Shown here: positions 1,891 through 64,000 of the stretch, one piece after another
Layout of the letters: each line of letters begins with the position of its first letter
How positions within the stretch are numbered: the first letter of the stretch is position 1
Program-made: the position numbers and the translations under genes
Assembly: GCA_047967505.1 (NCBI GenBank)
Contig: CM106538.1
Length of the DNA stretch: 64,000 nucleotides
Direction: 5' to 3' (one strand)
DNA from: Dipteris shenzhenensis
Taxonomy: Eukaryota
Notes under the pieces: generated by a model
What the model was told of the DNA's origin: nothing
Database searches by the model: none
The model's input: only the letters and a program-made list of their open reading frames with translations

Positions 1891-3835
1891 TGTGCATATT
1901 ACGCCATGCAACTAATGTGAATTCCTTAGGAAACTTTGCAAGGTCCTTACATTTAAAGGTTCTATAGGTAGCGGACGTTATTCAGAGGGGCAACAAGAAA
2001 CTTCAGTCTCAAGCTCTCCACCAGTGACACCTCCTCCAAGAGTGAGAGACTAAGTACACCAAGGTGCTAGAATGACAAGACAATTTTTTATAACCATTGC
2101 GGCCCAGGGACACAGCTGCAGAGATTGAGGGATTAGGGTGAACAGATGCACTCAGACCCTTTGTCTGTATAGGGGGTGACCTTCCGATGAATATCATCCA
2201 GCAAGTTTCTTCTTTTGTTAAGGCAAACTTTAGTGTAACTGAAGTAGTTTGTATCAACCAAAGATAAAATCTGATCTTTCGACATGTAAGGATAATACTT
2301 CTAGGCCCTCTGTTCAGCTGTTAATAGACCCTAAAACCCTGTAGCAACGTTCATAATGTTAGATTCCAATGAAAGATGACACCAATTCAACCTAGCGATG
2401 TTACCACTCGAAAGTTCTATCAGCTGCAATACTGCTCGTGCTACAGAACTCAAAACATTCTAGAGATCCGCTCACTGCTAGAGAACTCGTGGCATCCAAG
2501 AGATTTCACCATCTATTCAAGTGTTTATGGTAACAACGCAACCAACTGATCAAATCTTCATTCAAGCTACCAGACCCATTCTGCCCATACATGTACGACA
2601 GGCGTCCATTTGAAAACACGTTCTAACGGTGTGTGACGCTTGTAACAGAGCTCACACGAAGTACACATAAGGCTTTAAGATTGTCTATACACATTCTCTT
2701 TACCTTTTCGCAAATCTGTAAGTCAGAAAACTACAAACAAGATTTCTATGCTTATACTATCTCTCTCTTTCCAGCAATAATCTATCACTACAATTCTCCA
2801 AAGAACTCTGGAATCCACATCTAACTTCTAGAAGGACTTTCAACCACTGGCTCTAACTCAAAACTCAAAACTTCAACGTATTCTTCTTTTCGGAAACAAC
2901 AAGATGACAACTATAAATAACAGACAACCAATCAATCTTCAACGATCCACTGAAACAAATCCCTCCAAGTCAGTGAGAGCTTTCTATTGGGCTAATATGC
3001 ATTCCAATTCTAGAAAAAGAAAAAATTTAAAAGCGGTAACATAAACAGTGGATCCATCACATGCATACTGTACCAGTTTGGTGCCATCGTTGAGACCATT
3101 CTCTACACCAGTTGAACTTTCAGCAGATCTAGCAGCTAGTGCGCCAAGAAAATTTTCCGTCTTCCACATCCATAGCCAGTGTATAACCAATATGATTGAT
3201 CAGCAGCGGCTTAAGATTACAATCCCAAGTCAGGCTTTGCTAGCCAGAGCCATGTCTCCACACAAATAGTGCCACAAAACAAATCCACAGGACAATTCAT
3301 TGATCGACAACAGACCATCTGAACAGCGTCTGCATTTCAGACACTTTATTGGTCAGCCTGTGCACTGCTCATGGAGTGGAAAACAACAGCCTTCTGCAAA
3401 CAGGATAGAAGCGCTGCCAACATGATCAATAGCAGTATAGCATGCTCCAACGTATCAATACAACCCCAAGCTCTACATTTCAAAGAGTCATGCTGCAAGC
3501 AACCTCGTACAGAATTTCTTCCCTGCAGACAAACATATGCGGTGGCCAAAAGACAATGTCTTAGACATATAATAGGCAGCTGGCAATATTGGTGAGCACA
3601 AAGAGCACCAACTTCAGTTCTATTGTTGAGCATCCATGATGCGACCTCTTAATCTGTGCAGATCAATTCACCCATTCTCACCTCCCCAGAGTCTAAAAAC
3701 GTTAAAAATCCACGTGCTCAACACCTTTGACTCAACCAGCTTCCTTTTCTTTAAAGCCCTTGATGATCTTTTTATAATCAAGGGCTTCAATAATTTCAAA
3801 CAGTGCTCTACTTTTTAATCTTGTTAGTTAAGAGT

Positions 3836-4040
3836 GATGCTTACAAAGCATGCTCCCTCCTGGAAAAGATGCTTGCAGTATGCATCCTTTACTGTGATCA
3901 TGTGTATTTCTTGGTGGCAAAGTGGCAGGCACTTTAATTCAAAGATTCTTTGACACCCAATCGTGCCATAAGATGTACTCATAAGCCCAGCTCTAGCCCA
4001 CTTCTCACGAGACAACGTAAATCATCCTCCTTTTCATGGA
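3836..4040 (-). pseudogene. Second, more degenerate DYW domain remnant
   Basis: Across frameshifts it reads EKEDDL..EKWARAGLMSTSYGT..VSKNL*I..ACHFATK..ITVKDAYCKHLFQEGAC, colinear with the DYW consensus. Confidence 0.7.
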
Positions 4041-4294
4041 GCTTTGCATGGAATATCACTGGTTTGCCACAATAAGCGCCATCTTCAGTCCTGAAGAAGC
4101 TGCCATCTTGGCAAAGTTGCTGAGAATATATGATTAAGTCCCTCAATCTATGTAGATCCTTCCAATATCAATTCAGACAATATTGCCTCTAAAAAAGTTT
4201 ATAAATCTTCCTTTTCTCAAAAGCCCTCGATGATTGATCGTGTTCTTATCGCTCCAATCCTTTCAAATAGTGCTCCAATCTTTAGCAGTGTTAA

Positions 4295-4685
4295 TTAATA
4301 GTAATCTTTACAATAGCATGCTCCACCGTGGAAGTGATGAATGTGGAATGCATCCTTTACTATGATCTCTTGCTTTTCAACCTTGGCGATCATCTTGGTG
4401 GCAACATGGCATCCACCGCACATACAAAGATACTTTGATACCCAAAGAGTTCTGCCTTCAGGTGTACTTATAAGCCAGAACGCTATAGCCAACTTCCCAG
4501 AATGTCCCATAGTGCATCCTCTCTTTCTCGTCAAATGTTGGATCCGAAATAAACCAGGTTTATATCCTTCTTCCTTCATTTCCACACTTAATGTCTTGAG
4601 CTTTGGATAGATACCATCAATTTGAGGGTAACTTTTGTCTCCCACAATGAAATCATGCACCTGATTGCCAATCTCAATAAAGGCA
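4295..4685 (-). pseudogene. Out-of-frame, decaying E+/DYW deaminase domain of the PPR gene (DYW:KP-like)
   Basis: AFIEIGNQVHDFIVGD..HSGKLAIAF..CGGCH..HHFHGGACYCKDYY lies in a different frame from the PPR ORF. The catalytic HxE reads HSG, and extra indels occur near 4510-4545. Confidence 0.88.
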
Positions 4686-7600
4686 TGCATTCGCATGTTT
4701 CCTAAGACCATCTACATTCTTTGCGTCCTGTTGCATGCCAGCATAAGCATAGATATTTGACATAATCACATATGCTGCAGCATTTCCAGGATCCATTGTA
4801 ACAACACGGTCAAAGCATTGCCTTCCTAAACTTACCTTGCCAATTTTTCTACAGGAACTGAGCAGAGACCTCCACCCCACAATATTAGTCTGAAAAGGAC
4901 TAGTGTCAAGCAAGTCTTCGGCCTCACTCAGTCGCCCTGAATGGCCAAGAAGGTCAACCATAGTATTATAATGTTCAATTGCAGGTGATATAAAATGCTT
5001 CTCACGCATTAGCTTGAAATATAAACAGCCTTCCTCTACCAGGCCCGCACGGCTGCATGCTGAAAGAAGGCTCTGAAATGTCATATCATCTGGCTTTAAC
5101 CCTGCTTGTTGCATATCCTTGAAAATTTCAAAGGCCAGAAAACAACTATCATTCTTGGCATACCCTGCAATCAATGCACTCCACGTTGCAATATCATGTG
5201 TGAGCAACCTATCGAACACTGCTTGGGCATCTTTGAGGCTTCCACAATTCGCATACATATCAATCAGTGTGCTGCCAACAAATGGATCCAATTCAAACCC
5301 AGTTTCAGTGATATGGAGGTGAATCTTCCTGCCGTGCTCTAAGGCTGCCATGCTGGAACATGCTTTCAAGACACAAATATATGTGACCCAGTTTGGCATC
5401 ATGCCATCCTCTTGCAATTGCTCGAAAAGTCGCACAGATATCTGACCGGAATCATGCTCGGTATAGCCTATAATCAACATATTCCAAGTCTCTATATCTC
5501 GTTCTGGCAATCTATTGAAAACCATGCTTGCATCCTGGACACTGTGACATTTCCTGTACATGTCTATAAGTGCATTGCCAATATTGCCATCAAAATCAAA
5601 ACCTCTCTCAAAGATATACGTGTGAACCTTCCTTCCCTGCTCAAGGTCTGCCATGCGGGAGCATGCTTTCAAGATGCAAACAAATGTGATGGGATTTGGA
5701 TCAGTCCCATCTTGTTGCATTTTCTCAAAAAGTTGCAAGGCCTCTTCATCATGGTCATACTGGACATACCCTGCCAGCAAAGCATTCCATGCCACAATTT
5801 CTAGCTTGGGCAACTTGTCAAACACGGAACATGCATCCTCAAGGCTCCCCAATTTGACATACATGGTTATGAGAGTGTTACCAATAGACAAATCCAACTC
5901 AAACCCACTTCCAATTATGTGATTGTGAACCCACCTTCCTTGCTCTAGGGCTGCTACAGCTGAACAAACTTTCAAAATGCAAACAAACGTGGTTGGGTCT
6001 GGTTCTATGCCCTCCTGTTGCATTTGCTGGAAAAGCGGGAGAGCCTCCTGACCATTTGCATGCTGTGCATACCCTGCCATCAACACGTTCCACGTCACAA
6101 CATTTCGTTCTGGCAATCTGCCAAAAGTAATGCATGCATCGTCAGGTCCTGCACATCTGAAATACATATCAATGAGAGTGCTACCAACAAAAAAATCCGA
6201 TTCAAAGCCACATTCAATTATATGCATGTGAATCCGTCTACCCTCTGCCATGGTGGAACATGCTTTCAGGATATTGACAAATGTGACAGGGTTTGCTTTC
6301 ACACCCTCCTGATGCATTTGGTCAAATATTAGGAGAGCCTCTTGACCATGTCCATGCTGAGTATAGCATGCAATCAAAGCACTCCAAATCACAACATCTA
6401 ATTTTGTTAACGCGTCAAACACTACACGTGCATCCTCAAGGCTCCCACAGTTCGCATACAGGTCAATGAGGATGCTGCCAATAAAACCATCCACCTCAAA
6501 CCCACTTTGGATGATGAGTATATGAATACGCTTACCTTGCTCTAGGGCTCTTATGATGGAGCATGCTTTCAATGTGCAAGCATATGTTACCTGGTCTGGC
6601 TGTATGCCTGCCTCTTGCATTTGACTGAATATTTGTAAAGCTTCTTGGCCATGTCCATGCTCAGTATACCCAGCAATTAACATGCTCCATGTCACAATGT
6701 CTCGAGAGGGCAAATTGCCAAACACCGTGTGGGCATCCTCGAGGCTCCCACATTTGGTATACATGTCAATAAGAGAGTTACCGATGAATGCATCCAGCTC
6801 AATTTCTGTTTCTACGATCTGAACATGAACCCGCCTGCCCTGCTCTATGCTGGAACATGCTTTCAGAAGACATCCGTATGTGAACTGGTTAGGTTTTTGA
6901 CCGTCCAGTTGCATTTGCTCAAAAAGTTGGAGAGCTTCATGGCCATGTCCATGCTGGGCACACCCGGCAATCAATGCACTCCATGTCACAACATCACGCT
7001 TGGGCAAAGTTTCAAACACCATGTGAGCATCCTCGAAACTCCCACATTTAGCATACATGTCCACAAGAGTGTTGCCAACAAACAGGTCCAACTCAGACCC
7101 ACATTTGGTAAAATTAGCATGAATCTGCCTGCCCAGAGCTAGGGCTCCAACACGAGCACATGCTTTCAAAATGCAAAAAAAAGTGACCTGATTTGGAGTC
7201 AAACCCCTTTCCATATGATCAAAAAGTTCAAGGGCTTCTTTACCATGTCCATGCTGAGTGTAACCTGAAATCAATGCATTCCATGCCGTCACCTCTCGGT
7301 TGGGCAATCTATCAAACATCACCTGTGCATCCTGAAGGCTTCCACATTTGGCATACACATCAATTAGAGTATTGCCAATAAATGCACCTGACTCAAGCCC
7401 TCTTTCAATGATGTGGGCATGAATGCGTCTACTTTGATCCAGGTCTGTTATGCCCGCACATGCTTTTAGGATGCATATAAATGTGACCCGATTTGGCTCC
7501 ATTCCTGCCTCATGCATTTGCTCTGAAAGTTGAAGAGCCTTCTGACTATTCCCGTGCTGGGCATATCCGGCAATTAACACATTCCAAGTTACAACATTCT

Positions 7601-8108
7601 GCTTGGTCGATTTTCTGAATACTATGTGTGCATTCTCAAGTCTCCCGCATTTGGCATACATGTCAATGAGGGCACTGCCAACAAATGCGTCTGACTCAAG
7701 GCCGCTTCCAATGATTTGTTGATGGATGTACTTCCCCTGCTCTACCAGTGCTAGGCTAGAACATGCTTTCAGGACTGACACGAAAATGTGTCCATTAGGT
7801 TCCAAGCTTGACTTTTGCATCTGGTGATAGACTTTGATAGCTTGCTCATTCTGCCCAAGATTAGCATGTGCTGAAATAATTGCACTCCATGCAACCAAAG
7901 TCAGTTTGTCCAGGCTCTTCTCTGCCCTCTGAATCTCTAAATAAGGTATTTCATCACTGCTTCGTGATTGTGCAGACTGTGTTTTCCTCCACCCTCGAAA
8001 CTGCATTGCGGAAGCAAATGAGAGCGGGGAGCTTGTGGTTCTTTCTTTTCTGCCATTTTTCTGTTTGAGTCTTCTCAAACGGCTTGTTTCCCCCCGGCAG
8101 ATTTCCAT
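4674..8108 (-). CDS. PLS-class pentatricopeptide repeat protein (~10 P-L-S triplets + E1/E2), organellar RNA-editing factor; DYW domain lost by frameshift
   Basis: Uninterrupted ORF (open from 8222) with ten repeated WxALIxGY..G...AL.LF.QM / TF..ILKAC / GxxLIDMYxKCG triplets, then E1/E2 (WRSLLSSC..GRQCFDRVV..AAAYVIMSNIY). Start codon uncertain (ATG at 8222, 8108 or 8006). Confidence 0.93.
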   Translation of the reverse strand: MEICRGETSRLRRLKQKNGRKERTTSSPLSFASAMQFRGWRKTQSAQSRSSDEIPYLEIQRAEKSLDKLTLVAWSAIISAHANLGQNEQAIKVYHQMQKSSLEPNGHIFVSVLKACSSLALVEQGKYIHQQIIGSGLESDAFVGSALIDMYAKCGRLENAHIVFRKSTKQNVVTWNVLIAGYAQHGNSQKALQLSEQMHEAGMEPNRVTFICILKACAGITDLDQSRRIHAHIIERGLESGAFIGNTLIDVYAKCGSLQDAQVMFDRLPNREVTAWNALISGYTQHGHGKEALELFDHMERGLTPNQVTFFCILKACARVGALALGRQIHANFTKCGSELDLFVGNTLVDMYAKCGSFEDAHMVFETLPKRDVVTWSALIAGCAQHGHGHEALQLFEQMQLDGQKPNQFTYGCLLKACSSIEQGRRVHVQIVETEIELDAFIGNSLIDMYTKCGSLEDAHTVFGNLPSRDIVTWSMLIAGYTEHGHGQEALQIFSQMQEAGIQPDQVTYACTLKACSIIRALEQGKRIHILIIQSGFEVDGFIGSILIDLYANCGSLEDARVVFDALTKLDVVIWSALIACYTQHGHGQEALLIFDQMHQEGVKANPVTFVNILKACSTMAEGRRIHMHIIECGFESDFFVGSTLIDMYFRCAGPDDACITFGRLPERNVVTWNVLMAGYAQHANGQEALPLFQQMQQEGIEPDPTTFVCILKVCSAVAALEQGRWVHNHIIGSGFELDLSIGNTLITMYVKLGSLEDACSVFDKLPKLEIVAWNALLAGYVQYDHDEEALQLFEKMQQDGTDPNPITFVCILKACSRMADLEQGRKVHTYIFERGFDFDGNIGNALIDMYRKCHSVQDASMVFNRLPERDIETWNMLIIGYTEHDSGQISVRLFEQLQEDGMMPNWVTYICVLKACSSMAALEHGRKIHLHITETGFELDPFVGSTLIDMYANCGSLKDAQAVFDRLLTHDIATWSALIAGYAKNDSCFLAFEIFKDMQQAGLKPDDMTFQSLLSACSRAGLVEEGCLYFKLMREKHFISPAIEHYNTMVDLLGHSGRLSEAEDLLDTSPFQTNIVGWRSLLSSCRKIGKVSLGRQCFDRVVTMDPGNAAAYVIMSNIYAYAGMQQDAKNVDGLRKHANACLY

Positions 8109-8206
8109 TGAGAACTTCGCCGTTTGCCTTTGGACCTCTGAAAACCATTCAGGTTGTACGTTGTCTGGTCTCAACTCAGTCTCACGGGAGAGGACTTTTC
8201 CGTGGA

Positions 8207-8532
8207 ATGGAGACAGAGGCATCCTGGGCTGACCTTACCTATGAAGCCCTGGTGGAGATTTTCAAAAGAGTAGGCTTTGAGGACCTTTACCTTTCTGTGC
8301 CGCTGGTATGCACGGCATGGAGAAGAGCGTCTAAAGATTCAGTTTGCTGGGAGCTTGTAAATATGGAGGATTGCTTTCGGAAAAGGCAGGAGACTTTAAT
8401 GTGGTGGGAGCCATCTTTCGAGAAGAAAATCGATTTTATGGTTAAGTTGGTGGTCGATCGGAGCTGTGGGAATTTGCGCGAACTGTCTACTCGACATTGT
8501 TCCAATGACGCGTTGTTTTACGTTGCCTCACG
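8207..8532 (+). CDS. First coding exon of a SKIP1-like F-box/LRR protein; no downstream exons found in the window
   Basis: METEASWADLTYEALVEIF..VPLVCTAWRRASKD..W (F-box), then WWEPSFEKKIDFMVKLVVDRSCGNLRELSTRHCSNDALFYVASR, resembling Arabidopsis SKIP1. Ends at a cg|GTAGGT donor (8533). Confidence 0.75.
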
Positions 8533-8705
8533 GTAGGTTCACCACATTCTCTGTAAATTCTGGTGCGCCTGGCTGCACGCCTGTATTGTCTGTTGGATTG
8601 TTTCTTCCTTCCTCCGCTTGCATACTTATCTCTGCACATGTAGTCGCTTGGCTTGAGTTAGAAAGAGCTGTACGCGTTTCCCAATCCTGCAAGGACGATT
8701 CCAAA

Positions 8706-9010
8706 TTGCAGCCAGCATCATCGTTGTTAACTTTAATCTCATTTGTTAAAAACTACACGATCGGTTCTCAGTAGCAGTAACATATGTTCCGGCATTCTTG
8801 GTATCCAGGTGTCATGTTGGAAATAGAAGGGCTATGGCGGAGCTCTTTCCCAGACAACACGGTTAAGCAGGTGAATGAGGCCTCAATAGGATGTTTGATG
8901 TCTTTATTCACTTGCTGTAGCTGCTCCAGATCTCTTCTCTAACATGAAACTTCATGTGACAGAGAGATTCAATGTGTGTGGACCTCTTGCAAAGTACAAA
9001 GCGGGCTTTG
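8706..9010 (+). repeat. Left arm of ~305-bp inverted repeat (partner 10987-11291)
   Basis: Direct reading: ttgcagccagcatc...gcgggctttg is the near-perfect reverse complement of 10987-11291. Confidence 0.92.
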
Positions 9011-9357: not shown

Positions 9358-11043
9358 TTATTCAATGAGGATGCTGCCAATAAAACCATCCACCTCAAAC
9401 CCACTTTGGATGATGAGTATATGAATACGCTTACCCTGCTCTAGGGCTCTTATGATGGAGCATGCTTTCAATGTGCAAGCATATGTTACCTGGTCTGGCT
9501 GTATGCCTGCCTCTTGCATTTGACTGAATATTTGTAAAGCTTCTTGGCCATGTCCATGCTCAGTATACCCAGCAATTAACATGCTCCATGTCACAATGTC
9601 TCGAGAGGGCAAATTGCCAAACACCGTGTGGGCATCCTCGAGGCTCCCACATTTGGTATACATGTCAATAAGAGAGTTACCGATGAATGCATCCAGCTCA
9701 ATTTCTGTTTCTACGATCTGAACATGAACCCGCCTGCCCTGCTCTATGCTGGAACATGCTTTCAGAAGACATCCGTATGTGAACTGGTTAGGTTTTTGAC
9801 CGTCCAGTTGCATTTGCTCAAAAAGTTGGAGAGCTTCATGGCCATGTCCATGCTGGGCACACCCGGCAATCAATGCACTCCATGTCACAACATCACGCTT
9901 GGGCAAAGTTTCAAACACCATGTGAGCATCCTCGAAACTCCCACATTTAGCATACATGTCCACAAGAGTGTTGCCAACAAACAGGTCCAACTCAGACCCA
10001 CATTTGGTAAAATTAGCATGAATCTGCCTGCCCAGAGCTAGGGCTCCAACACGAGCACATGCTTTCAAAATGCAAAAAAAAGTGACCTGATTTGGAGTCA
10101 AACCCCTTTCCATATGATCAAAAAGTTCAAGGGCTTCTTTACCATGTCCATGCTGAGTGTAACCTGAAATCAATGCATTCCATGCCGTCACCTCTCGGTT
10201 GGGCAATCTATCAAACATCACCTGTGCATCCTGAAGGCTTCCACATTTGGCATACACATCAATTAGAGTATTGCCAATAAATGCACCTGACTCAAGCCCT
10301 CTTTCAATGATGTGGGCATGAATGCGTCTACTTTGATCCAGGTCTGTTATGCCCGCACATGCTTTTAGGATGCATATAAATGTGACCCGATTTGGCTCCA
10401 TGCCTGCCTCATGCATTTGCTCTGAAAGTTGAAGAGCCTTCTGACTATTCCCGTGCTGGGCATATCCGGCAATTAACACATTCCAAGTTACAACATTCTG
10501 CTTGGTCGATTTTCTGAATACTATGTGTGCATTCTCAAGTCTCCCGCATTTGGCATACATGTCAATGAGGGCACTGCCAACAAATGCGTCTGACTCAAGG
10601 CCGCTTCCAATGATTTGTTGATGGATGTACTTCCCCTGCTCTACCAGTGCTAGGCTAGAACATGCTTTCAGGACTGACACGAAAATGTGTCCATTAGGTT
10701 CCAAGCTTGACTTTTGCATCTGGTGATAGACTTTGATAGCTTGCTCATTCTGCCCAAGATTAGCATGTGCTGAAATAATTGCACTCCATGCAACCAAAGT
10801 CAGTTTGTCCAGGCTCTTCTCTGCCCTCTGAATCTCTAAATAAGGTATTTCATCTCTAGGAAATACCTGAGTTTCAGAAGGCAGAAAAGAGCTAGGAAAA
10901 ACATTTGTCTCCACAAACTTGCATGATGCTCTTTGTTTCAATGATGCTAGCTGCACCCAAAGAGGGGTCTGCCCAACATCAATCCACAAAGCCCGCTTTG
11001 TACTTTGCAAGAGGTCCACACACATTGAATCTCTCTGTTGCAT
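9358..11043 (-). pseudogene. Truncated PLS-PPR duplicate (561-aa ORF, no E/DYW) with a different N-terminus
   Basis: 9362-10854 duplicates 6463-7955 (offset 2899). I saw only two differences, both synonymous. The ORF stops right after the duplication breakpoint. Confidence 0.85.
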
Positions 11044-11291
11044 GAAGTTTCATGTTAGAGAAGAGATTTGGAGCAGCTACAGCAAGTGAATAAAGACATC
11101 AAACATCCTATTGAGGCCTCATTCACCTGCTTAACTGTGTTGTCTGGGAAAGAGCTCCGCCATAGCCCTTCTGTTTCCAACATGACACCTGGATACCAAG
11201 AATGCCGGAACATATGTTACTGCTACTGAGAACCGATCCTGTAGTTTTTAACAAATGAGATTAAAGTTAACAACGATGATGCTGGCTGCAA
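10987..11291 (-). repeat. Right arm of ~305-bp inverted repeat (partner 8706-9010)
   Basis: caaagcccgc...gctggctgcaa, with a handful of mismatches to the left arm. Confidence 0.92.
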
Positions 11292-13850: not shown

Positions 13851-14649
13851 GTTTTACTAGATAAGCATAAGGTTCATATTTTTGAATTTTTTGAAAATTA
13901 AAAAGCCACACCATGGAACAGAGGTGCTTGAGCATAAAAATCTGTTAGTGCATTGGTGCACTATTAGAGGTTTTTTGGACTCCTTATGCTACACATAGTT
14001 TGGACTTTCTCATAGAGGACATATATATGTATGTATATATATATATATATATATAGTTAGTGTGACTATTGGGATTAGTAGTTTTGATAGATGAGTTCTT
14101 GGAAAAATCATGCATCCGAGGAACATGATTAGTTGAGCATAAAGGCACACTATTCCATATTCGTTTATAAATGGTATGGTGGATTTTTCCAAAAACTATT
14201 CAAAATGTCACAAAGATGGTAAATATGCATGTATGAAAATTATATGTAGCATGGTCCTGATGAAGGCAAAATAAGATATGCTTGATAAAAATAAGAGGCA
14301 AAATAAGAGTTATATGCAAGGAGATTGCCTCTTATAGGTGGTTATATGCAAGGAGATTCCCTCTTATTAATATCTTCATGTCATCTTGTGTGGGCATTGT
14401 GTTAGGCTTCAATTCATGCATTGAATGTACTTGAGTCCAATAGTTCATCCTTCTTCACCCTTCTCTATCAAGAATTTGAAGGGTCTTGAAAACAGGTACA
14501 CACTCCCCATAATTTTCTCAGCTACATGCTAAACGTCACTATAGAAAAAAGAGGTACCTAGTACACCATTCTCTATCAACAAGTTGAAGGGTGCTGAGAA
14601 AGGGATGCGTAGTCCCTATAATTTTCTTAGCTGCTAAGATCTCACCTTT

Positions 14650-16990
14650 TCGAGCATTTCATTCTCTCCTTTCCTCTTCTTTTTCCCTCTCTTTTTTCCT
14701 CTCTTTTCCTCTCTTTATCCTCTTTTCATCTCTTTTCCCCTCTCTTTCATTCTCTCATTTCCTCTCTTTCCTTCTCTCTTTTCCTTCTCTTTCCCTCTCT
14801 TCTCCTCCTCTCTTTTATTCTCTCTTTTCCTCTCTTTCCTTCTCTCTTTTCCTCCTCTCTTTCCTTCTCTCTTTCCTTCTCTTTCCATCTCTTCTCCTCC
14901 TCTCTTTCATTCTCTTTTTTCCTCTCTTTTCCTCTCTTTCCTTCTCCCTTTTCCTTCTCTCTTTCCTTCTCTCTTTTCCTTCTCTTTCCATCTCTTCTCC
15001 TCCTCTCTTTCATTCTCTCTTTTCCTCTCTTTTCCTCTCTTTCCTTCTCTCTTTTCCTCCTCTCTTTCCTTCTCTCTTTTCCTTCTCTTTCTATCTCTTC
15101 TCCTCCTCTCTTTCATTCTTTATTTTCCTCTCTTTCCTTGTCTCTTTTCCTCCTCCCTTTCCTCTCTTTCATTCTCTCCTTTCCTCTTCTTTTCCCCTCT
15201 CATTTTCCCTCTATTTTCCTCTCTTTTCCCCCTCTCTTTTCCTCTCTTTCATTCCTCTCTTTTCCTTCTCTTTCCCTCTCTTTTTCTCCTCTCTTTTATT
15301 CTCTCTTTTCCTCTCTTTTCCTCTCTCTTTTACTTTCTCTTTTCCTCTCTTTTCCTTTCTCTTTCCTTCCTCTCTTTTCCTCTCTTTCATCCTCTCTTCC
15401 TCTCTTTCATCCTCTTCTCTCTTTTCCTCTCTCTTTTCCTTTCTCTTTTCCTCTCTTTTCCTTTCACTTTTTCATCCTCTCTTTCATCCTCTTCTCTCTT
15501 TTTCTCTCTTTTCCTCTCTTTCATTCTCTTTTTTCCTCTCTTTCCTTTTCTCTTTTCCTCCTTTCCTCTTTTCTTCTATTTTTCTCGTTTCCTCTCCTTT
15601 CATCTCTTTTCCTACTCTCCTTTCCTCTCTTTCCTTTAACCCTTCCTTCTCTCTTTTCCTCCTCTCTTTCCTTCTATCCTTTGCTTTCTTTTCCTGTCTT
15701 TCATTCTCTCCTTTCCTGTTCTTTTCCCCTCTTTTTTCCTCTCTTTTTCTCTCTTTCATCCTCTCTTCCTCGCTTTTTCCCTCTCTTTCCCTCTCTTTCA
15801 TTCCTCTCTTTTCCTCCTTTACCCCTCTCTTTCATTCTCTCTTTTGCTCTTCATTCTTTTTTCCTCTCTTTTCCTCTCTTTCATCCTCTCTTCCTCTTCT
15901 CTCTTTCTCTCTCTTTTCCTCTCTTTCCTTCTCTCTTTTCCTCTCTTTCCTTCTCTCCTCTTTCCTTCTCTCTTTTCCTCTTTTCCTCTCTTTTCTTCTC
16001 TCTTTTCCTCTCTTTTCCTTCTCTCTTTTCCTCTCTTTCCTTTAAGCCTTCCTTCTCTCTTTTCCTCCTCTCTCTTTCCTTCTCTCCTTTCCTCTCTTTT
16101 CCTCTCTTTCATTCTCTCCTTTCCTCTTCTTCTCCTCTCTTTCATTCTCTCCTTTCATCTTCTTTTCCCCTCTCTTTTTTCCTCTCTTTCATCCTCTCTT
16201 CCTCTCTTTTCCCCTCTCTTTTCCTCTCTTTCATTTCTCTCTTTTCCTTCTCTTTCCCTCTCTTTTCCTCCTATCTTTCATTCTCTCTTTTCCTCTTCAT
16301 TCTTTCCCCCTCTCTTTTTTCATCTCTTTTCCTCTCTTTCATCCTCTCTTCCTCGCTTTCATCTTCTTCTTTCTTTTCCTCTCTTTTCCTCTCTCTTTTC
16401 CTTTCTCTTTTCCTCTCTTTTTTCCTCTCTTTCCTTCTCTCTTTTCCTCTCTTTCATTCCTCACTTTTCCTCTCTTTTATCCTCTTCTCTCTTTTCCTCT
16501 CTCTTTTCCTTTCTCTTTTTATTTCTTTTCCTTTCACTCTTTCATCCTCTTTTGCTCTCTTTCCTTCTCTCTTTTCCTCTCTTTCCTTCTCTCTTTTTCT
16601 CTTTTCCTCTCTTTTCTTCTCTTTTCCTCTTTTCATCTCTTTTCTTTGCTCTTTTCCTCTCTTTTCCTTCTCTCCTTTCCTCTTTTTCCTTTAAGCCTTC
16701 ATTCTCTCTTTTCCTCTTCTTTTCCCCTCTCTGTTTTCCTCTCTTTTCCTCTTTTCCTCTCTGCTCTTCTCTTTTCCTCTCTTTTCTCCTTTCTTTTCCT
16801 TTCTTTTCCTTCTCTCCTTTCCTCTCTTTCCTTTAAGCTTTCATTCTCTCTTTTCCTCCTCTTTTCTGCGCTCTCTTTTTTCCTCTCTTTCATCCTCTCT
16901 TCATCTCTTTCATTCTCTCTTTTCCCCTCTCTTTTCTCCTCTCTTTTTCCTCTTTGTCATCTCTCTTCTTCTTCTTATTCTCCACCTCTT
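14650..16990. repeat. ~2.3-kb polypyrimidine (C/T) low-complexity tract
   Basis: Almost exclusively C/T, built from ttttcctctc / tttcatcctctc variants. The overlapping ORFs are compositional artefacts. Confidence 0.97.
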
Positions 16991-17049
16991 TTTACCGAGG
17001 AGAAGACTGAGGAAGGCATAAAACACCCTACGGGATCCCCGTAAGCTTT

Positions 17050-37765: not shown

Positions 37766-40700
37766 CTACGGTTCAATCTCATCCTCAATGAGATCAACCC
37801 TTGCCAAACTATCTACTTCAAAATCCAAACAAGTGTTTAGATCTACAAATACATTCAACCCACTACTACTTGTGCCACTCATGTGCTCATCGAAATCAAG
37901 ATCTCCAATGGTAGGCTCGTCCTCACGGGTAATGCCGGCCTCAATATCTATATCTCCTATCTCATGATCATCCTCCTCTCTTGTATCACGGTCATCATCA
38001 CGTCCATGGCCATGATCATCCTCCATACGCTCCATATTAGTAAATGTACTATACATCACTTTGGAACGTGGCATAATAGGTATGACATGCCACCACCTAT
38101 TATTATCCACCATTGGTTGATAGACAACCTAATTCAAACACAAATACAATCATGTTACTTTTCTTGCATCAAATATTTAAAAGCGAGTATTTTTATGTGT
38201 GTGCACAGTACCTGTTCACATTGTTGCGGTAGTACTAGTGTGTCCTTCCTACTTTGCCAAAACTTTGTGGAGTCAATACTTACAAAGCCACTTGCATGGC
38301 GTTTGATTATTGCATTAGGGCCTCTTTCCACCACGTCCTTAAACCACTTTACATCCAAAACATACACAAAGAAGCGTCGAAAGTCAAGCATAATGATATC
38401 TTGGATTATGCCACAATAATCATCCATGGCTCCATTGGCTCCCTCAAAGCTAGCAATGACGCCGCAATCTTGTGTGTTTCTGTTATCATCAATCTGTTGT
38501 GTTCGAAAATGCTTGCCCTCACACCATATAGCATTGAACATAGTGCACTACACCAAGAAAAAATTCAATTAAATAAGTAATCTAAATTATAAAAACCTCC
38601 TAACTTATGCATAGCATTCTATATACCGACCTTGCTCATGCATCTCCTAGCATACTCCCATTCTTCCATTGTGATATGCATCCCCTCGTCTTTCTCTGCT
38701 TTCTCCATTTCATCAAGTAGCCAATCCACATGAATATCCTTTGAAAGTGCTCTTAGACGCTGAGGGTATGGCACACGAGATCCGTGGTGTGTACGAAAGA
38801 GGCCCTTTCTTCTTGTCTTCTTGCCTTTGCATCCTCGTATCTTGTCACCCATCTTTTCATCACATCACTATTAAGCACGCAAAAGAGGTTGATACTATTA
38901 CGCAACTCCGTGTCTATTACTTTGTTGCGTCCTTTTCCTTGAGGCACAATAGAGGTCATCCTTAGGTCTTCATCATCTCTCCATAGTTGTGGGAGAGAGC
39001 TATCCACATCGACAAGAAACCCAGAAATATATACAAGTGACTCTTGTACCAACCAACCCTCGGCCATGCTACCTTCGGGTCTTGCATTTTGTCTCACGAA
39101 GCCCTTCAACGTCTTCATGAAGCGCTCGAGGAAGAACAACCATCGTGCATGTATAGTACCGCATATAGCAATCTCATCCACCAAATGTACTATGAGATGT
39201 AGTTGGCTTGTGAGAATAGAACGTGGAAATGTCTCCTCCACTAAACAAACCGCCTCCACTGACATAACTCGAGCATTCTTAAGCATGGTGGGATCTATTT
39301 CCTTTGAGCCACCCGCGAGGAGGTGGTTGATTAGTTGCTTATAGCTATTCACTCACAAATTTGAAAGGAAAAAGATATTATGCATATAAAATTGTTACTT
39401 GGAGCATCTTGTGCCAATCATGAGATTTCAAGCCATATAATTGCTCTACACCTCTTTTCTTACTCTTTGTAAAGGCTCCCTTCAAACACCTCATGCATCC
39501 AGTGGGGGTACGAATTGTAGTAATAGCGCGCTTCACCGTCGCCATCTCTAGCTTTGATAACATCCACGGTGCACGAGGTAAAAAAACACGCCCATTTGGT
39601 CTCTCTTGAGGCCAAGCTTCACGCATCCTCCCTGTGGTACGTAGATCCTCCCTTATGCCTGCCGAATCTCATGTCCCATTCAAATGCTCCCAAATGGTAG
39701 ATGCCACATTCTTGAAGATATGCATGGGATCGAGCAGGTGATTGATCTTGAGGTGGGACCAATATGGTAAACAATAAAAGATGGAGTATCTAAACAAAAT
39801 AAAGTGTTAGCGTGCAATCTTCACTTTCAACCAATATAGCCAATCTTTACTTCCAGCCAATAGTTACAAATCCTTATCGGCTCATGCCAAGTGGTGGAGG
39901 AGTCGTGAAACCGTCCCAAATTCTCATCCAATCTCCCGCGGTGAGTGATTGTGTGAGGACTTCATTCCAAGGGGCAACATATCTAGGATGATCAGGTGGG
40001 AGAAATCGATGGTGATTCTCATAGATGACCTTATTCAATGCGTCTTCCCATGAGGCAACTAGCGAAGGACCACAAACAAGACATGCATGGTAACCCGATG
40101 TAGTGAGACCTGAAACAATAGATGCAATTAAGAGTGGAAGGTGGGTTTAGGGTGCCACGTCCTTTGCCTATTCATAATTAAAAAAATGCAATGCTTACCT
40201 GAACACTCGCCATAGCCTGGGAAGTCATGCATCGTCCACATCAAGACTGCTTTGCAGTTGAAGTCTCGTGACGAGGGAGGCCTGCTCACATCATGCACCT
40301 CGATACCTCTCCAAAGTATCTCTAGCTCATCAATCAAAGGCTCCAAATAAACATCAGGGTTTTTGACTTTATGTTTCCCTGGAATTAGAAGGGACAGCAT
40401 GACATGTCCTTTCTTAATAGCCATAGAGGGTGGAAGATTGTAATTCACCAATACCACTGGCCATACACTGTAAGACGTGCTTTTGAGACCAAATGGGTTC
40501 ACACCGTCCATACCCAATCCAAGTCTCAAGCTCCTAGCTTCTTCCTTGAAGCTTGGCCATGTGTCTTCAATATGCTTCCACGCAGGAGAGTCCGCGGGAG
40601 TTCTCCACTTGCCATCGGTTGATCGATGGGAGGAATGCCATGACATGAGCTCTGCAATGGATTTGCACTTGAACATATGTTGGATGCGAGGGATTATGGG

Positions 40701-40938
40701 AAAATGTCGCAATACCTTACGAGGCACGTCCAAGGTTTTGAGATCTGCTCTATATCTTGCCTCTCCACAAGTAGGACACTCTCTTGCATCCTTATGTAGT
40801 CCACGAAACAAAACGCAATCGTTGACACATGCATGGATGCGCTTGTAATCTAATCCTCCAAGAGAGGTCACATGTTGCCTTGCCATATCTCTTGAGGTCG
40901 GTAATTTATTCTCCCTTGGAAGCATTTTACACAATAGC
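37766..40938 (-). pseudogene. TnpD/Tnp2-like CACTA transposase, multi-exon, frameshifted, first two exons deleted
   Basis: IHACVNDCVLF, LRHFPIIPR, DGVNPF, YNLPP, WTMHDFPGY, GLKSHDWH, HLIVHL..GTIHARW..ERFM and DYCGIIQDI motifs, separated by GT-AG introns. Confidence 0.92.
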
Positions 40939-41981
40939 CTGCACGTGAAGACCATAAATGAGAAAAAGCATTCGAGTAATTGACCCACTAGCATATCGTC
41001 GCGTCTATCGTCGCATCTAATGTCGCGTCTAATTGCGTGTCTAAACGCGCGTCTACTCTGTGTATTTAAATGCCACCGTAGACGCGCTAATAGATGCGAC
41101 TATAGACGCATCTACTCTGTGTATTCAGATGTGACTATAGACGCGCTAATAGATGCGACTTTTAAACCTGCTTTTCGGCACGCCGCTCGCTTTGCTTTTC
41201 TTTTCACTACTTAAACTTCGTGAGCGGCTTTCTTCCTTCTTTATTAGCAGTTCTATAGATTCGAAGCTTAAGAGAGAGCCTCCCATACACGGTTCCAAGC
41301 TTTCACTCAAGAGAAAGGGACCGTACCTACACTTGCTTCCAAGCCTAAAGAAGAGGAGGAGTACGAACAAGGAGAAGAAACAAGTTTGGAAAAGAAAGAT
41401 CCTTCCATACCTTTTTCCAAGTAAGTCCTTTTGAAGTTGTTCTTGCTTGCTCTTTCCAGTTTTGTACTTTCTCGCATCCACGAAACGCAGCATCTAGGTA
41501 TGAGCAACACGTTCTTTTGTCGAGCGAAACGTCCTTTTTGACTTTTTAGTATTCTCGCCTGTCGGAGCACGTGTATAGAGGCGTCTGAGGGTGCATCTAA
41601 ACGCGCATCTACAGGCGTGTCTATCTGTGCGTCTGGCTTGTTACAGACACACACAAACGCATATGTAGACGCTCACACAGACACCCTGTTAAACGGAGTT
41701 TTAAACGCACTATTAGACGCGCTTTTAAACGCGTTCTTAGACGGATGTTTAGACGGACTGTTAGACGCGCTGTTAGATGCGCTTGTAAACGCACTGTTAG
41801 ACGGATTGCTGGACGGAATGTTAGACGCAGTTTTACTTGAATTGTTAAACGCTCTGTTAGACGCGTCTATAGACACGCAGATCAGACGGGTCTATAGACG
41901 CGCTCTGACAGAGCCTCTTTTTTTTCCCCTTTCTTCTCAGCTCCCAAAGTAATAGATTTGTTTCCTTTTTTCCAGTTCAAC

Positions 41982-59994: not shown

Positions 59995-61990
59995 ATGCCC
60001 ACATACATGATGATCATCACAGGAAATTGGATGCGGTCATGTAAATGCATCATGGTTGGCTACAGTGAAGAAAGCAAGGCATACAAGTTGTATGATCCCA
60101 TCAACTGCAAGGTCATTATCTCCAAAGATGTAATCTTTGATGAGGAATCAGAATGGAAAACCTCAAATACACAGGAGATGGAACCATCGACTTCATGGTC
60201 ATCTACAGAACAGGTTGATGAAGATGAGTAAGAATTGCCAGCAAAACCCCAAGCAGAGCCATAACAGCTCAGACGGTCTACTAGGGAAAGCAGACCACTA
60301 GCTAGATTGACATATGCTCACAAAGGTAAATAAATTCAAGTTGAAACCACCAGTTATGCTCTTATGACTACCCTCATGGCTATAGAAGAGCCAATGTACT
60401 TCGAAGATGTAGTAGACAAGCTAGAATGGCAAACTGCTATGAATCATAGAAATGGATGCTTTGTATAAGAATAATACTTGGGAATTATGTGACCTTCCAC
60501 TAGGAAAGAAGGCTATAGCAAACAAATGGGTATACAAAGTGAAGTACAATCCAGATGGAAGTATTTAAAGATACAAAGCCAAACTAGTTGCAAAAGGATT
60601 TGCATAGCAATATGGTCAAGATTATGATGAGACTTATGCTCTAGTAAGCAAAGATGGATTCCATACGGTTCTTGATATCACTAGCAACACTCAGTAGATG
60701 GAATGTGTATCAGCTGGATGTCAAGAATGCATTTCTCAATGGTTATCTAGACGAGGAAGTCTACATGCAACAACCAGCAGGTTATGTGGAACCAGGAAAG
60801 GAGAATAAGGTTTGCCATCTCAAGAAGAGTCTCTATGGCTTAAAGCAAGCACCCAGAAGTTGGTACAACAGAATTGACAAGTATTTTGTTGATCTGGGAT
60901 ACATGAAATCCAATGCAGATCATACTCTCTACTACAAAGTTCAAGGGGAAGACATTACTATTGCACTTTTGTACATAGACGAGGAAGTCTACATGCAACA
61001 ACCAACAAGTTATGTTGAACCACGAAAGGAGAATAAGGTTTGCCAACAACCAGCAGGTTATGTTGAACCAGGAAAGAAGAATAAGGTTTGCCATCTCAAG
61101 AAGAGCCTCTATGGCTTAAAGCAAGCACCCAAAAGTTGGTACATGATAATTGACAAGTATTTTGCTGATCTGGGATACATGAAATCCAATGCAGATCATA
61201 CTCTCTACTATAAAATGCAAGGGGAAGACATTACTATTGCACTTTTATACGTAGATGATTTGATTGTGATAGGAAGCAAGGATAGCTTCATCAAAAATCT
61301 AAAACAAGACTTATCTATAGAGTTTGACATGAAAGATCTTGGACTTATGAACTATTGTCTTGGAATTGAGTTCTGGAGAGATTCAGATAGCACATTCATG
61401 AGTCAGCTCAAGTATGTTGATAGTCTCTTGAAGAAGTTTCATATGGCAGATTGCAAGATTGCAGCCACTCCCATGGAAAAAGCCTACAGTCAATGACATC
61501 TACTACAGGTAGCTCATTGGATCTCTTATATATCTGACTATCACACGGCCATATATTTGTTATGTAGTAAGCTCACTAGCACAGTTTATGGCAAATCTAA
61601 AACAATCTCACTGGAATGCAGCCAAAAGAGTCTTGAGATACATCAAAGTTACAAGACAGTTTGGGATAGAATACAGAGGAAGCCATCCCTTTTGCATAGA
61701 TAATGTGACAGTGACTATGCCGGAGATCATGAGACCGGGAGATCGATAAAGGGATATGCATTTTTCCTTGGTCAAGTTGCTATATCATGGTTGTCAAACA
61801 AACAGCCTACTGTTTCTTTGTCTTCGACTGAAGCAGAATATAGAGCACTTACTACAAGTGCATATGAGGCTATATGGCTCAGAAGACTATTGTCAGAAAT
61901 AGATTACTTTGATGAGTCAAAGCCAACAACAATATACTATGATAATCAATTGGCTCAAGCATTTGGCCAAGGATCCAGTATATGAGAAAT
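59995..61990 (+). mobile_element. Ty1/copia pol fragment (integrase tail, RT, RNase H), frameshifted
   Basis: GYSEESKAYKLYDP, YKAKLVAKGF, QLDVKNAFLNG, LKKSLYGLKQAPR, LYVDDL, DSDYAG and [14 protein letters not shown]. Confidence 0.95.
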
Positions 61991-62576: not shown

Positions 62577-62713
62577 ACGGATTCCATATTCCCTTATTCA
62601 AGCCTATAATATTTTAATAGTTCTCTAAAGGGGCCCTTTTTTAGTCCAAAATTTTTGTAATGCCACATCTTCCCTCCAACCATGCTCTCTCTTTGTGACT
62701 CTCCTCCCTCCAG

Positions 62714-62836
<123 letters not shown>

Positions 62837-63556
62837 GCATTTCAACAATTATGAGGATCTACACCGGGAAAAAACACTTGCCACATGGAATATTCACAAT
62901 CGAAATGCCACATGGAAGTATTTTTAAAGAATATAAATTAACTTTTGTTCAATGTGGTTTTTTTGGGTTATGTGTGCGTGGTGAAAATTTTTAAGAAGGA
63001 AAAATAACTTGGAATCCTCTCAAGTGGTAGGCTAAAAAATATATGGCATGCCTACTTGCATAATTGGTCAACATCGTACTTATTGACCTTAGCAATCCAC
63101 TCCAATAGCTTAAGAAGATGGTTTTGTTTCTCCATATACTTATCTATAATCTTCCATAGATATCCTTAGTTAAGTTTGATCTATTTCAAGATACATGTAT
63201 TCAAGTGATTTCTTGCACCCTTCTCTTGCAATTTTGTATGTGTGTGACATTTGGGTGACACAAGTGTGCAACTTGTGCATACGAAGCTCCCACATGGAGT
63301 TGTTTGATGTTCCAAATGAAACAAAAATGAATTTTCAAGATCTTAGAAGATGTCCATGTCAAAATTTATATTAAAAAGATCCAAAATGTCTAACTAAACA
63401 TCAACAAAATCTATGCTGGTTTTATCAACTGTGGGTGTAGCAATCTCTCCATCTTGTACTGTAATAGAACCTATCCTGGTTTCCTCAAGTACTTCATGCT
63501 CTAACTTGACAAATTACTAGGATCATCTCATAACGAGGAGATTGAGGCTTTGATGA

Positions 63557-64000
63557 TTATTCTTGCACCCGATCACTATTAATTGTTGTAGCTCCCATCT
63601 CTTGATCAGCACCAAGCAACTCATTCATTGCATTGATCCATTGGACAATGAATGATGCTCGGCCTTGGTCCTTCTCAATTGCAACACAATTTTGGCCCTT
63701 CTCCAAAGCACAAATGATGGTAGGAGCCATACAAGAGATACAAAATGAATCCACTCTCAAACCATAATAACTCTATCATCTCATTGATCAATCTGTCAGG
63801 CTTCTGATAGCAATTGACCAAATGATGGGATGCATCTAAGAAGCATAACTTTCTTGTCACAATAGGATACTTGAATACATTTTTGACATTTGTTTTTCTA
63901 CAATACATCCCAACCTTTCTCTTCTTAGAGGTAGAGAAATATCCAATTGTATCATCTCAAATAAACTAACCACTCTATCCCCTGGCATGTGTGTCAGATT
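63557..64000 (-). pseudogene. C-terminal half of a beta-class N4-cytosine/N6-adenine DNA methyltransferase (N6_N4_Mtase-like), frameshifted, runs off the window
   Basis: Joined frames read RVVSLFEMI/TIGYF..KNVFKYP..VNCYQKPDRLINEMIE..GFILYLLYGS/TIICALEKGQNCVAIEKD..FIVQWI. This matches the QKP..L..LI..G..ILD.F.GSGT..A...GR.C.AIE.D pattern. Confidence 0.72.

Follow-up and report, generated by a model that had tools for sequence, protein, structure and literature searches.

A decayed methyltransferase gene in Dipteris shenzhenensis, probable remnant of a ParB-like/PF01555 family carried by putative transposons

Introduction

The prevailing view is that DNA methylation in land plants is confined to C5, the N4-cytosine (N4C) enzyme of Marchantia being the known exception. 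The closest known system to the gene family treated here is found, as far as the preprint text on gene content goes, in the PAG2/PAG3 transposons of red algae. Plavaka (EnSpm/CACTA) and other red-algal DNA transposons carry PAG2, a PF01555 methylase with a SET domain, and PAG3, a ParB-like domain with a 2-oxoglutarate (2OG) oxygenase; tandem inverted-repeat arrays lie next to PAG3, and the proposal made there is that such an element targets its own DNA for binding and modification (bioRxiv 10.1101/2025.02.11.637652). Here we analyse a stretch of 64,000 nucleotides from Dipteris shenzhenensis (assembly GCA_047967505.1, contig CM106538.1), called the window throughout. Its last bases hold the relic of a gene for a beta-class amino-methyltransferase (PF01555), whose relatives in ferns and a lycophyte appear to combine a ParB-like domain with a methyltransferase in a single protein.

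Prokaryote-type methyltransferases of other kinds have been described in eukaryotes and in mobile elements. In the published descriptions of domain content, the bdelloid enzyme N4CMT carries PF01555 and a chromodomain, and DN4MT1 of Marchantia has TSPPY, a motif characteristic of N4C enzymes, with no extra domains reported. By its available text, a further preprint describes retrotransposons that encode Dam-like adenine methyltransferases and proposes that they exploit host chromatin states (bioRxiv 10.64898/2026.05.21.726589). Fusions of ParB with PF01555 (PF02195 + PF01555) are common in phages and plasmids, according to the relevant sections of a review, which also list few N6-adenine methyltransferases in land plants and link a serine in the strand-4 motif to N4C activity (Iyer et al. 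2016).

Results

The methyltransferase relic

The relic lies on the minus strand, as do all coordinates given for it. It spans approximately the last 150 codons of the gene, the upstream part of which falls outside the window. Its parts are the following.

63557–64000, minus strand: pseudogene fragment, the last 444 bases of the window, in three collinear frames with two frameshifts
63950–64000, minus strand: piece a, reading NLTHMPGDRVVSLFEMI; the start of an exon that begins (V)KTN... in relatives; leaves the window edge
63950–63953, minus strand: frameshift 1, placed by codon arithmetic and alignment to relatives
63723–63950, minus strand: piece b, TIGYFS...ILYLLYGS, with motif X (QKP) and a degenerate motif I
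63722, minus strand: frameshift 2, one base between S of frame b (63725–63723) and T of frame c (63721–63719)
63560–63721, minus strand: piece c, TIICALEKGQNCVAIEKDQGRASFIVQWINAMNELLGADQEMGATT..., which matches the family profile
63557–63559, minus strand: stop codon, 10 codons past ...EMGA

The three frames belong to stop-free stretches at 64000–63860 (a), 63956–63678 (b, 93 amino acids, aa) and 63772–63560 (c, 71 aa). The breaks are placed at about 63950–63953 and at base 63722 because alignment to relatives bounds the frames there; base 63950 is common to the last aligned codon of frame a and the first aligned codon of frame b. A preceding inspection of the letters without database searches (the sequence-only reading) had put the frameshifts at about 63950 and 63721, and both were recovered. 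With its frames rejoined the relic reads NLTHMPGDRVVSLFEMI / TIGYFS...NCYQKPDRLINEMIELLWFESGFILYLLYGS / TIICALEKGQNCVAIEKDQGRASFIVQWINAMNELLGADQEMGATT, and piece a aligns with KTNLKHVPGLKMVHCFEMM of the relatives L004 and P0013. The motifs named in that reading, QKP at 63798–63806, ILYLLYGS as motif I and GxNCVAIEKD, are all located as it had them. Motif X (QKP) occupies 63806–63798 and the degenerate S-adenosylmethionine (SAM) motif I (ILYLLYGS) 63746–63723, both in piece b, and GQNCVAIEKD lies in piece c at 63697–63668 (NCVAIEKD, 63668–63691). No intron is present at the junction of frames b and c.

Decay is apparent throughout the fragment. Motif I reads YLLYGS versus DLFSGTG in the family, where the full motif is (V/I)LDLFSGTG; measured against an intact SAM motif I (D/E-x-F-x-G-x-G), the aspartate has become tyrosine and the second glycine is gone at the frameshift. 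Around motif X, the relic has NCYQKP versus NPYQKP in the family. Whereas the relic stops early, L004 runs 48 further residues past ...EVGAK, and the acidic tail of the protein is therefore missing or lost in the relic. Because of the two frameshifts, the loss of the aspartate and the second glycine from motif I and the early stop, the window copy is evidently a dead relic that can have no function. No second copy of the relic was found in the window.

Homology with beta-class amino-methyltransferases

Piece b, compared by phmmer with 1.84 billion representative proteins, gave 11 matches at E ≤ 1e-3, the best at 1.7e-12. Among ten of these matches, PF01555 was listed in seven; five scored above its cut-off of 26.7 bits (P0001 with 49.4, P0008 with 44.5, P0005 with 36.8, P0006 with 32.8 and P0009 with 28.8 bits), two fell below it, and the remaining three had no match. 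P0001 extends over piece c as well (...GTGTTTVCALQKKRNCIAVEKDPLQAAFILQRICAINDLPDADQEVGA). Two further relatives, P0023 from Ceratopteris and P0051, reach 57.3 and 60.0 bits against PF01555.

A family profile of 18 members was run on all 2695 six-frame segments of the window. It matched piece b at 2.4e-25 (profile positions 37–112) and piece c at 2.9e-13 (positions 109–168). Piece a, at an E value of 1.2 (positions 20–37), is insignificant alone and collinear with piece b. In direct comparison with L004, piece b shares 50% identity (E 3e-24) and piece c 45% (E 5e-13). Searches with the relic pieces themselves gave a single insignificant match in the PDB by phmmer (E 0.54) and nothing meaningful in the ESM Atlas, where the best score was 0.87.

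Against solved structures, the family profile matched M.RsrI best (3.4e-5), then M.MboIIA (8e-5), with DpnA and CcrM after them (range to 5.3e-3); only 60–80 residues align, which take in motifs X and I and the strand that comes next. Relatives also match the phage DNA methyltransferase families phrog_67 and phrog_498, at 1e-10 to 3e-19; the methyltransferase half of P0023 scores better with phrog_67 (2.8e-18) than with phrog_498 (1.3e-14). Motif X precedes motif I in the window, and in the relatives motif IV lies in the exon ahead of the KTN...QKP...GTG exon, which is the circularly permuted order. Since its relatives pass the Pfam cut-off and match M.RsrI, M.MboIIA, DpnA and CcrM, the relic is identified as a genuine homologue, in decayed form, of PF01555 enzymes over their C-terminal half, and the class proposed in the sequence-only reading is upheld through these relatives.

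Distribution of the family

The family profile was searched against a collection of 5.8 billion proteins, at lengths of 29–357 aa, and found 218 proteins at E ≤ 1e-3. Among the 120 of these matches that were listed, nearly all were short fragments at the level of open reading frames (ORFs). Named members are the Ceratopteris richardii protein KP509_15G027200 (P0023, 268 aa, with a UniRef name beginning 'DNA methylase N-4/N-6 domain...'), O6H91_02G146000 of Diphasiastrum complanatum and a transcript of Psilotum nudum (P0002, EukProt). Longer relatives were found neither with piece b at 164–2000 aa nor with alignment A3 at 470–2000 aa; lengths of 358–469 aa lie outside these searches, and a full-length annotated protein may exist there. 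In prokaryotes, a signature peptide gave five pattern matches among 185,579 species, represented by one genome each, and none of the five was a relative. A viral collection yielded three distant matches only, with 32–40% identity over 48–65 residues. Among related metagenome stretches, 119 encode relatives, and 80 of them were kept as loci L004–L083.

The window copy falls into subgroup 1 of the family, together with L004, P0001, P0013, P0035, P0051, P0004, P0003 and P0002. Members of this subgroup are without the intron that follows motif I in other copies, and the contiguous junction of pieces b and c in the relic fits this placement.

Gene structure and catalytic motif in related loci

With the Ceratopteris protein as probe, an upstream exon was seen in most loci. 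In L059 it reads ...SYGVFTEDVAEMSTLLPKKDYSLMIADIPYGFRMAGS... and carries LIADIPYGF. The strand-4 motif (motif IV) could be compared in 63 copies covering the site, 58 of which have DIPY; NIPY occurs twice, and DVPY (L004), DIPS and DIP* (the asterisk denoting a stop) once each. Relative to the consensus (D/N/S)PP(Y/F/W), D, P and Y are thus kept and the first P is I or V. A serine at the first position, as in the N4C-type SPPY or TSPPY, was present in none of the 63 copies. The enzymes M.RsrI, M.MboIIA, DpnA and CcrM carry DPPY, and the adenine methyltransferases Erm and KsgA work with N(I/L)PY. L004 (1.7 kb), the sole locus of subgroup 1, has the upstream exon with DVPY and the same intron before KTN. 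The sequence-only reading had expected a catalytic (S/D)PPY motif beyond position 64000. In the relatives a motif does lie upstream; it sits in a separate exon and has the form DIPY or DVPY rather than (S/D)PPY.

In L059, canonical GT-AG sites predicted from the sequence would link, without a change of frame, a ParB-like ORF, an exon of 48 codons, the exon with motif IV, the KTN...GTG exon and the final exon. The related gene would accordingly have five exons and four introns, and its most likely product is a single protein of some 940 residues, in which a ParB-like domain precedes a beta-class methyltransferase. The gene model of P0023 begins at a methionine just 3' of the DIPY-type motif and is without the ParB-like exon. 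Because the model starts downstream of the catalytic motif, P0023 looks like an incomplete annotation of a gene that belongs to a transposon.

ParB-like first exon and palindrome arrays

A long ORF precedes the methyltransferase exons in 49 loci; in L059 it has 566 codons (7079–8779). It was stop-free in 24 of 27 copies checked, and the copies are 55–80% identical to that of L059. A structure model of L059:7079–8776, predicted from an alignment of 23 sequences, has a mean predicted local distance difference test score (pLDDT) of 58.5 and reaches 74–89 over residues 260–400. Foldseek matched this model to ParB (7bnr_A, E 9e-5, probability 1.00), and VIA-align to PadC (Z 9.7, root-mean-square deviation 2.8, 100 residues), to pNOB8 ParB-N (Z 8.2) and to KorB (Z 8.2). 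The first exon is thus predicted to fold as a ParB, Noc or sulfiredoxin-like domain; such a domain N-terminal to the methyltransferase is modelled in relatives only. By sequence, the ORF gave only DUF6551 in Pfam (0.076), no match among the PHROGs and, as a profile, no meaningful match in the PDB.

Ahead of the ParB-like domain, residues 65–186 of the L059 ORF form a beta-rich domain in the model (pLDDT about 90). Its structural matches are weak, with SANTA at Z 5.0 and PH-like domains at Z of about 4.3, and it might be a reader of chromatin or DNA.

In 19 of 24 loci, the DNA upstream of the ParB-methyltransferase ORF contains palindromes 15–19 bp in length, which follow the pattern CGAT[G/A]C-N3-G[C/T]ATCG. 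They stand mostly in arrays of up to eight copies (L009), with a spacing of 30–100 bp, most commonly 40–50 bp. Three arrays are given here, and 16 further loci have them.

L059:6731–6833: palindrome array
L054:4103–4300: palindrome array
L009:25–405: palindrome array

The half-sites covary by lineage, CGATGC...GCATCG in some and CGATAC...GTATCG in others. As to the five loci without palindromes, three have 224–360 bp of upstream DNA, one has 824 bp, and one has its first exon deleted. The palindromes look like parS-type sites for a dimeric protein, to judge from their form.

Linkage to a transposase-like gene and terminal inverted repeats

On the opposite strand, L059 carries an ORF of 888 codons (3535–6201) whose only Pfam match is PF25273 (DUF7869, 1.8e-52); no Transposase_21, Plavaka or KDZ model matched it at E ≤ 0.1. 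The commonest phylum in the two nearest Atlas DUF7869 clusters is Streptophyta, and in the third nearest Oomycota. L006, L018, L026, L049, L054 and L059 all have this transposase-like ORF upstream of the gene and divergent from it, with 54–80% identity. It is linked in six of the seven loci with at least 2.5 kb of upstream DNA, the miss being L027, a truncated copy.

Two loci are bounded by terminal inverted repeats.

L059, 3144–3180 and 10918–10954: terminal inverted repeats of 37 nt, 81% complementary
L054, 698–730 and 8389–8421: terminal inverted repeats of 33 nt

Homology between L059 and L054 stops exactly at the inverted repeats on both sides, which delimits elements of about 7.8 kb in L059 and 7.7 kb in L054. 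Their termini (AACAC/GTTTGCG...AACATTGCG) recur in L012, L015, L017, L075 and, at both ends, L018. As many as 11 distinct copies are present in one assembly; they are 55–89% identical in one exon and stop-free there. An element that is bounded by terminal inverted repeats and contains the transposase-like gene was found among the relatives only (L059 and L054). In these related loci, the family is best described as a ParB-like/beta-class amino-methyltransferase carried as cargo within a cut-and-paste transposon that measures about 7.8 kb. The sequence-only reading had suggested a multicopy, transposon-carried family, which the relatives bear out (linkage in six of seven loci, terminal inverted repeats in two), the window copy and subgroup 1 being putative cases.

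At L056:4033–6332, the methyltransferase gene is followed downstream by a DUF7869 ORF and a homologue of the left terminus, both inverted; they are either a second, abutting element or a rearranged copy.

Selection on the gene

Ratios of nonsynonymous to synonymous substitution (dN/dS) were calculated pairwise with NG86. The copies used were free of stops and gaps, and the pairs were limited to those with dS of 0.05–1.5. The medians are as follows.

Motif-IV exon: 0.047 (4 pairs)
KTN exon: 0.072 (93 pairs)
Last exon: 0.092 (100 pairs)
ParB-like region: 0.044 (15 pairs)

The methyltransferase gene family is under strong purifying selection. From the low ratios it follows that the cargo gene would have been kept by selection across diverged element lineages.

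Surroundings of the relic in the window

The window consists of plant DNA rich in the remains of transposons, with a GRAS gene and a PPR gene. The following features were assigned.

GRAS gene, within the window: match at 5.1e-102
60648–61496: copia fragment (RVT_2) with an internal direct duplication, 60768–60982 and 61044–61258, 93% identical
38753–41099, minus strand: CACTA-type remnant, with Transposase_21 (1.6e-48) and DUF4218 (6e-25)

The CACTA-type remnant at 38753–41099 is unrelated to the DUF7869 protein of the methyltransferase family. Between the copia fragment and the relic, a compound (GA)n/(CA)n microsatellite occupies 62690–62840. Two PPR frames, 4674–8234 and 9358–11049 (minus strand), share an identical stretch of about 500 aa, which indicates that part of a PPR (E-motif) gene has recently undergone tandem segmental duplication. 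At 14588–17044, all three plus-strand frames stay open for about 2.4 kb and give only low-complexity peptides rich in S, F, L and P; by its composition this region is a CT-rich simple or satellite repeat and no gene.

Discussion

Origin of the relic

We consider it rather probable that the relic is the remnant, from an old insertion, of a ParB-like/PF01555 methyltransferase gene borne on an element with terminal inverted repeats, an element for which self-marking is proposed below. The window copy itself probably arrived on a transposon.

A number of observations weigh against this origin or limit it. In the window, no trace of the element's transposase, ParB-like ORF, terminal motif, palindromes or inverted repeats was found, and comparison of the window with all loci gave no nucleotide similarity. 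The element context of the relic is unseen because the remainder lies past position 64000, the window ending at an exon boundary. PF01555 (gathering score 26.7 bits) matches none of the three relic pieces, even at E values up to 10; the direct match fails because the relic is too short and too decayed. A target-site duplication is visible only in L054 (TGTT), and none is definable overall. The model of the transposase-like protein, built from five sequences, has a mean pLDDT of 36.5, too low for a check of its fold. The dN/dS values hold for stop-free and gap-free copies and for pairs with dS of 0.05–1.5. In the catalytic motif, the first P of (D/S)PPY is replaced by I or V, and the activity, the substrate (DNA or RNA) and the target base are putative.

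The remaining counterpoints concern subgroup 1 and favour the main rival, namely that a domesticated host gene of this family gave rise to the relic as a pseudogene, through ordinary gene duplication and decay, with subgroup 1 possibly a cellular lineage in ferns. Subgroup 1 has its own exon structure, without the intron after motif I. It includes P0002 from the transcriptome of Psilotum nudum, and a transcript would fit a host gene too. Flanks with a transposase were not seen beside any subgroup 1 sequence, the DNA of the subgroup being represented by L004 (1.7 kb) only, and the lack of element parts in the window points the same way. Against a host gene stand the sister subgroup, which has the transposase-like gene in six of the seven loci with enough upstream DNA, the transposon remains around the relic, and L004 itself, which keeps the upstream exon with DVPY and the same intron before KTN. 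On this balance we regard descent from a host gene as possible, if somewhat doubtful, and retain insertion with a transposon as the preferred origin.

Contamination with bacterial or phage DNA, or else direct acquisition from a prokaryote in the recent past, might be suspected since PF01555 is mainly a prokaryotic and phage family and phage methyltransferase families match the relatives. The signature peptide, however, found no relative among its five pattern matches in the genomes of 185,579 prokaryotic species, the viral matches are only three and distant, the relatives have introns of the spliceosomal GT-AG type, and the DNA around the relic is that of a plant (GRAS, PPR, copia, CACTA). We therefore hold such a source to be very improbable. 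A chance resemblance of motifs in short frames of AT-rich DNA, for which the silence of Pfam, the PDB and the ESM Atlas on the pieces could be cited, has a negligible probability and is refuted by a match of 1.7e-12 against 1.84 billion proteins, by profile matches of 2.4e-25 and 2.9e-13 and by the collinearity of the three frames.

Proposed function and significance

For the intact elements, we propose that the ParB-like domain would bind the palindrome arrays of its own element, and that the methyltransferase would then write N6-methyladenine (6mA) on or around it. Methylation of adenine at N6 is likelier than methylation of cytosine at N4 because D stands first in the motif and the solved structures closest to the family belong to adenine enzymes. 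The methyl mark might favour expression or transposition of the element, and the benefit could lie in protection from silencing or in the control of transposition. Extended further, and only tentatively, ferns and lycophytes may harbour active DNA transposons with a writer of their own, in which a ParB-like clamp and a DIPY methyltransferase act on parS-like arrays and set a self-mark of 6mA, or of N4-methylcytosine (4mC), that counters silencing by 5-methylcytosine or licenses transposition.

If this is true, vascular plants would possess a non-C5 DNA methylation system, and transposons, not the host, would encode it. The family offers clonable candidates for testing whether 6mA or 4mC is written in vascular plants, and lets one test whether transposons mark themselves with these bases. 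The value of the window copy is that of a pointer to the family.

Comparison with known systems

No account of the family from ferns or lycophytes turned up in the literature searched, whose scope did not extend to supplements or to the Marchantia paper in Cell (2025). The term 'DUF7869' was not found in this literature, and the search for N6_N4_Mtase in eukaryotic transposons returned nothing on land plants.

The retrotransposons with Dam-like enzymes resemble the present family in that transposable elements have co-opted a prokaryotic adenine methyltransferase, but they are retrotransposons and their enzyme belongs to another family (DAM); the terms ParB, PF01555 and land plant do not occur in the available text of that preprint (bioRxiv 10.64898/2026.05.21.726589). 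Marchantia DN4MT1a/b and bdelloid N4CMT are prokaryote-type N4-cytosine methyltransferases that were horizontally acquired by eukaryotic genomes. In the descriptions at hand neither is reported as transposon cargo, no link of the relic to either enzyme was found in them, and by these descriptions the present family is set apart from both by D instead of S in the motif and by its ParB-like domain.

In the order of motifs (IV ... X–I), the family agrees with M.RsrI, M.MboIIA, DpnA and CcrM, the solved beta-class N6-adenine enzymes. With the phage and plasmid fusions (phrog_498) it shares the order of domains, ParB-like first and beta-class amino-methyltransferase second. In contrast to these fusions, however, only the methyltransferase half matches by sequence (phrog_498, 1e-10 to 1e-14), the ParB half resembling them by predicted fold only; four introns, the N-terminal beta-rich domain, the acidic tail, the DIPY motif and the setting in a eukaryotic transposon further distinguish the present gene as reconstructed.

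The red-algal elements and the fern and lycophyte family have in common, as far as the preprint describes the former, a eukaryotic DNA transposon, a PF01555 methylase, a ParB-like domain and arrays of inverted repeats or palindromes. The methylase and the ParB-like domain of the red-algal elements are encoded in separate genes on elements of 17–19 kb, whereas here they form one fused gene on an element of about 7.8 kb. Neither the SET nor the 2OG domain that is present in PAG2/PAG3 was found by Pfam in the exons of the gene. By the same descriptions, the present family differs from PAG2/PAG3 in its hosts, ferns and a lycophyte, and in having DUF7869 only as its transposase-like partner. It is thus best seen as a variation on known themes, the PF01555 transposons of red algae and the ParB-methylase fusions of phages; its direct fusion, its DUF7869 partner and its hosts set it apart from the former.

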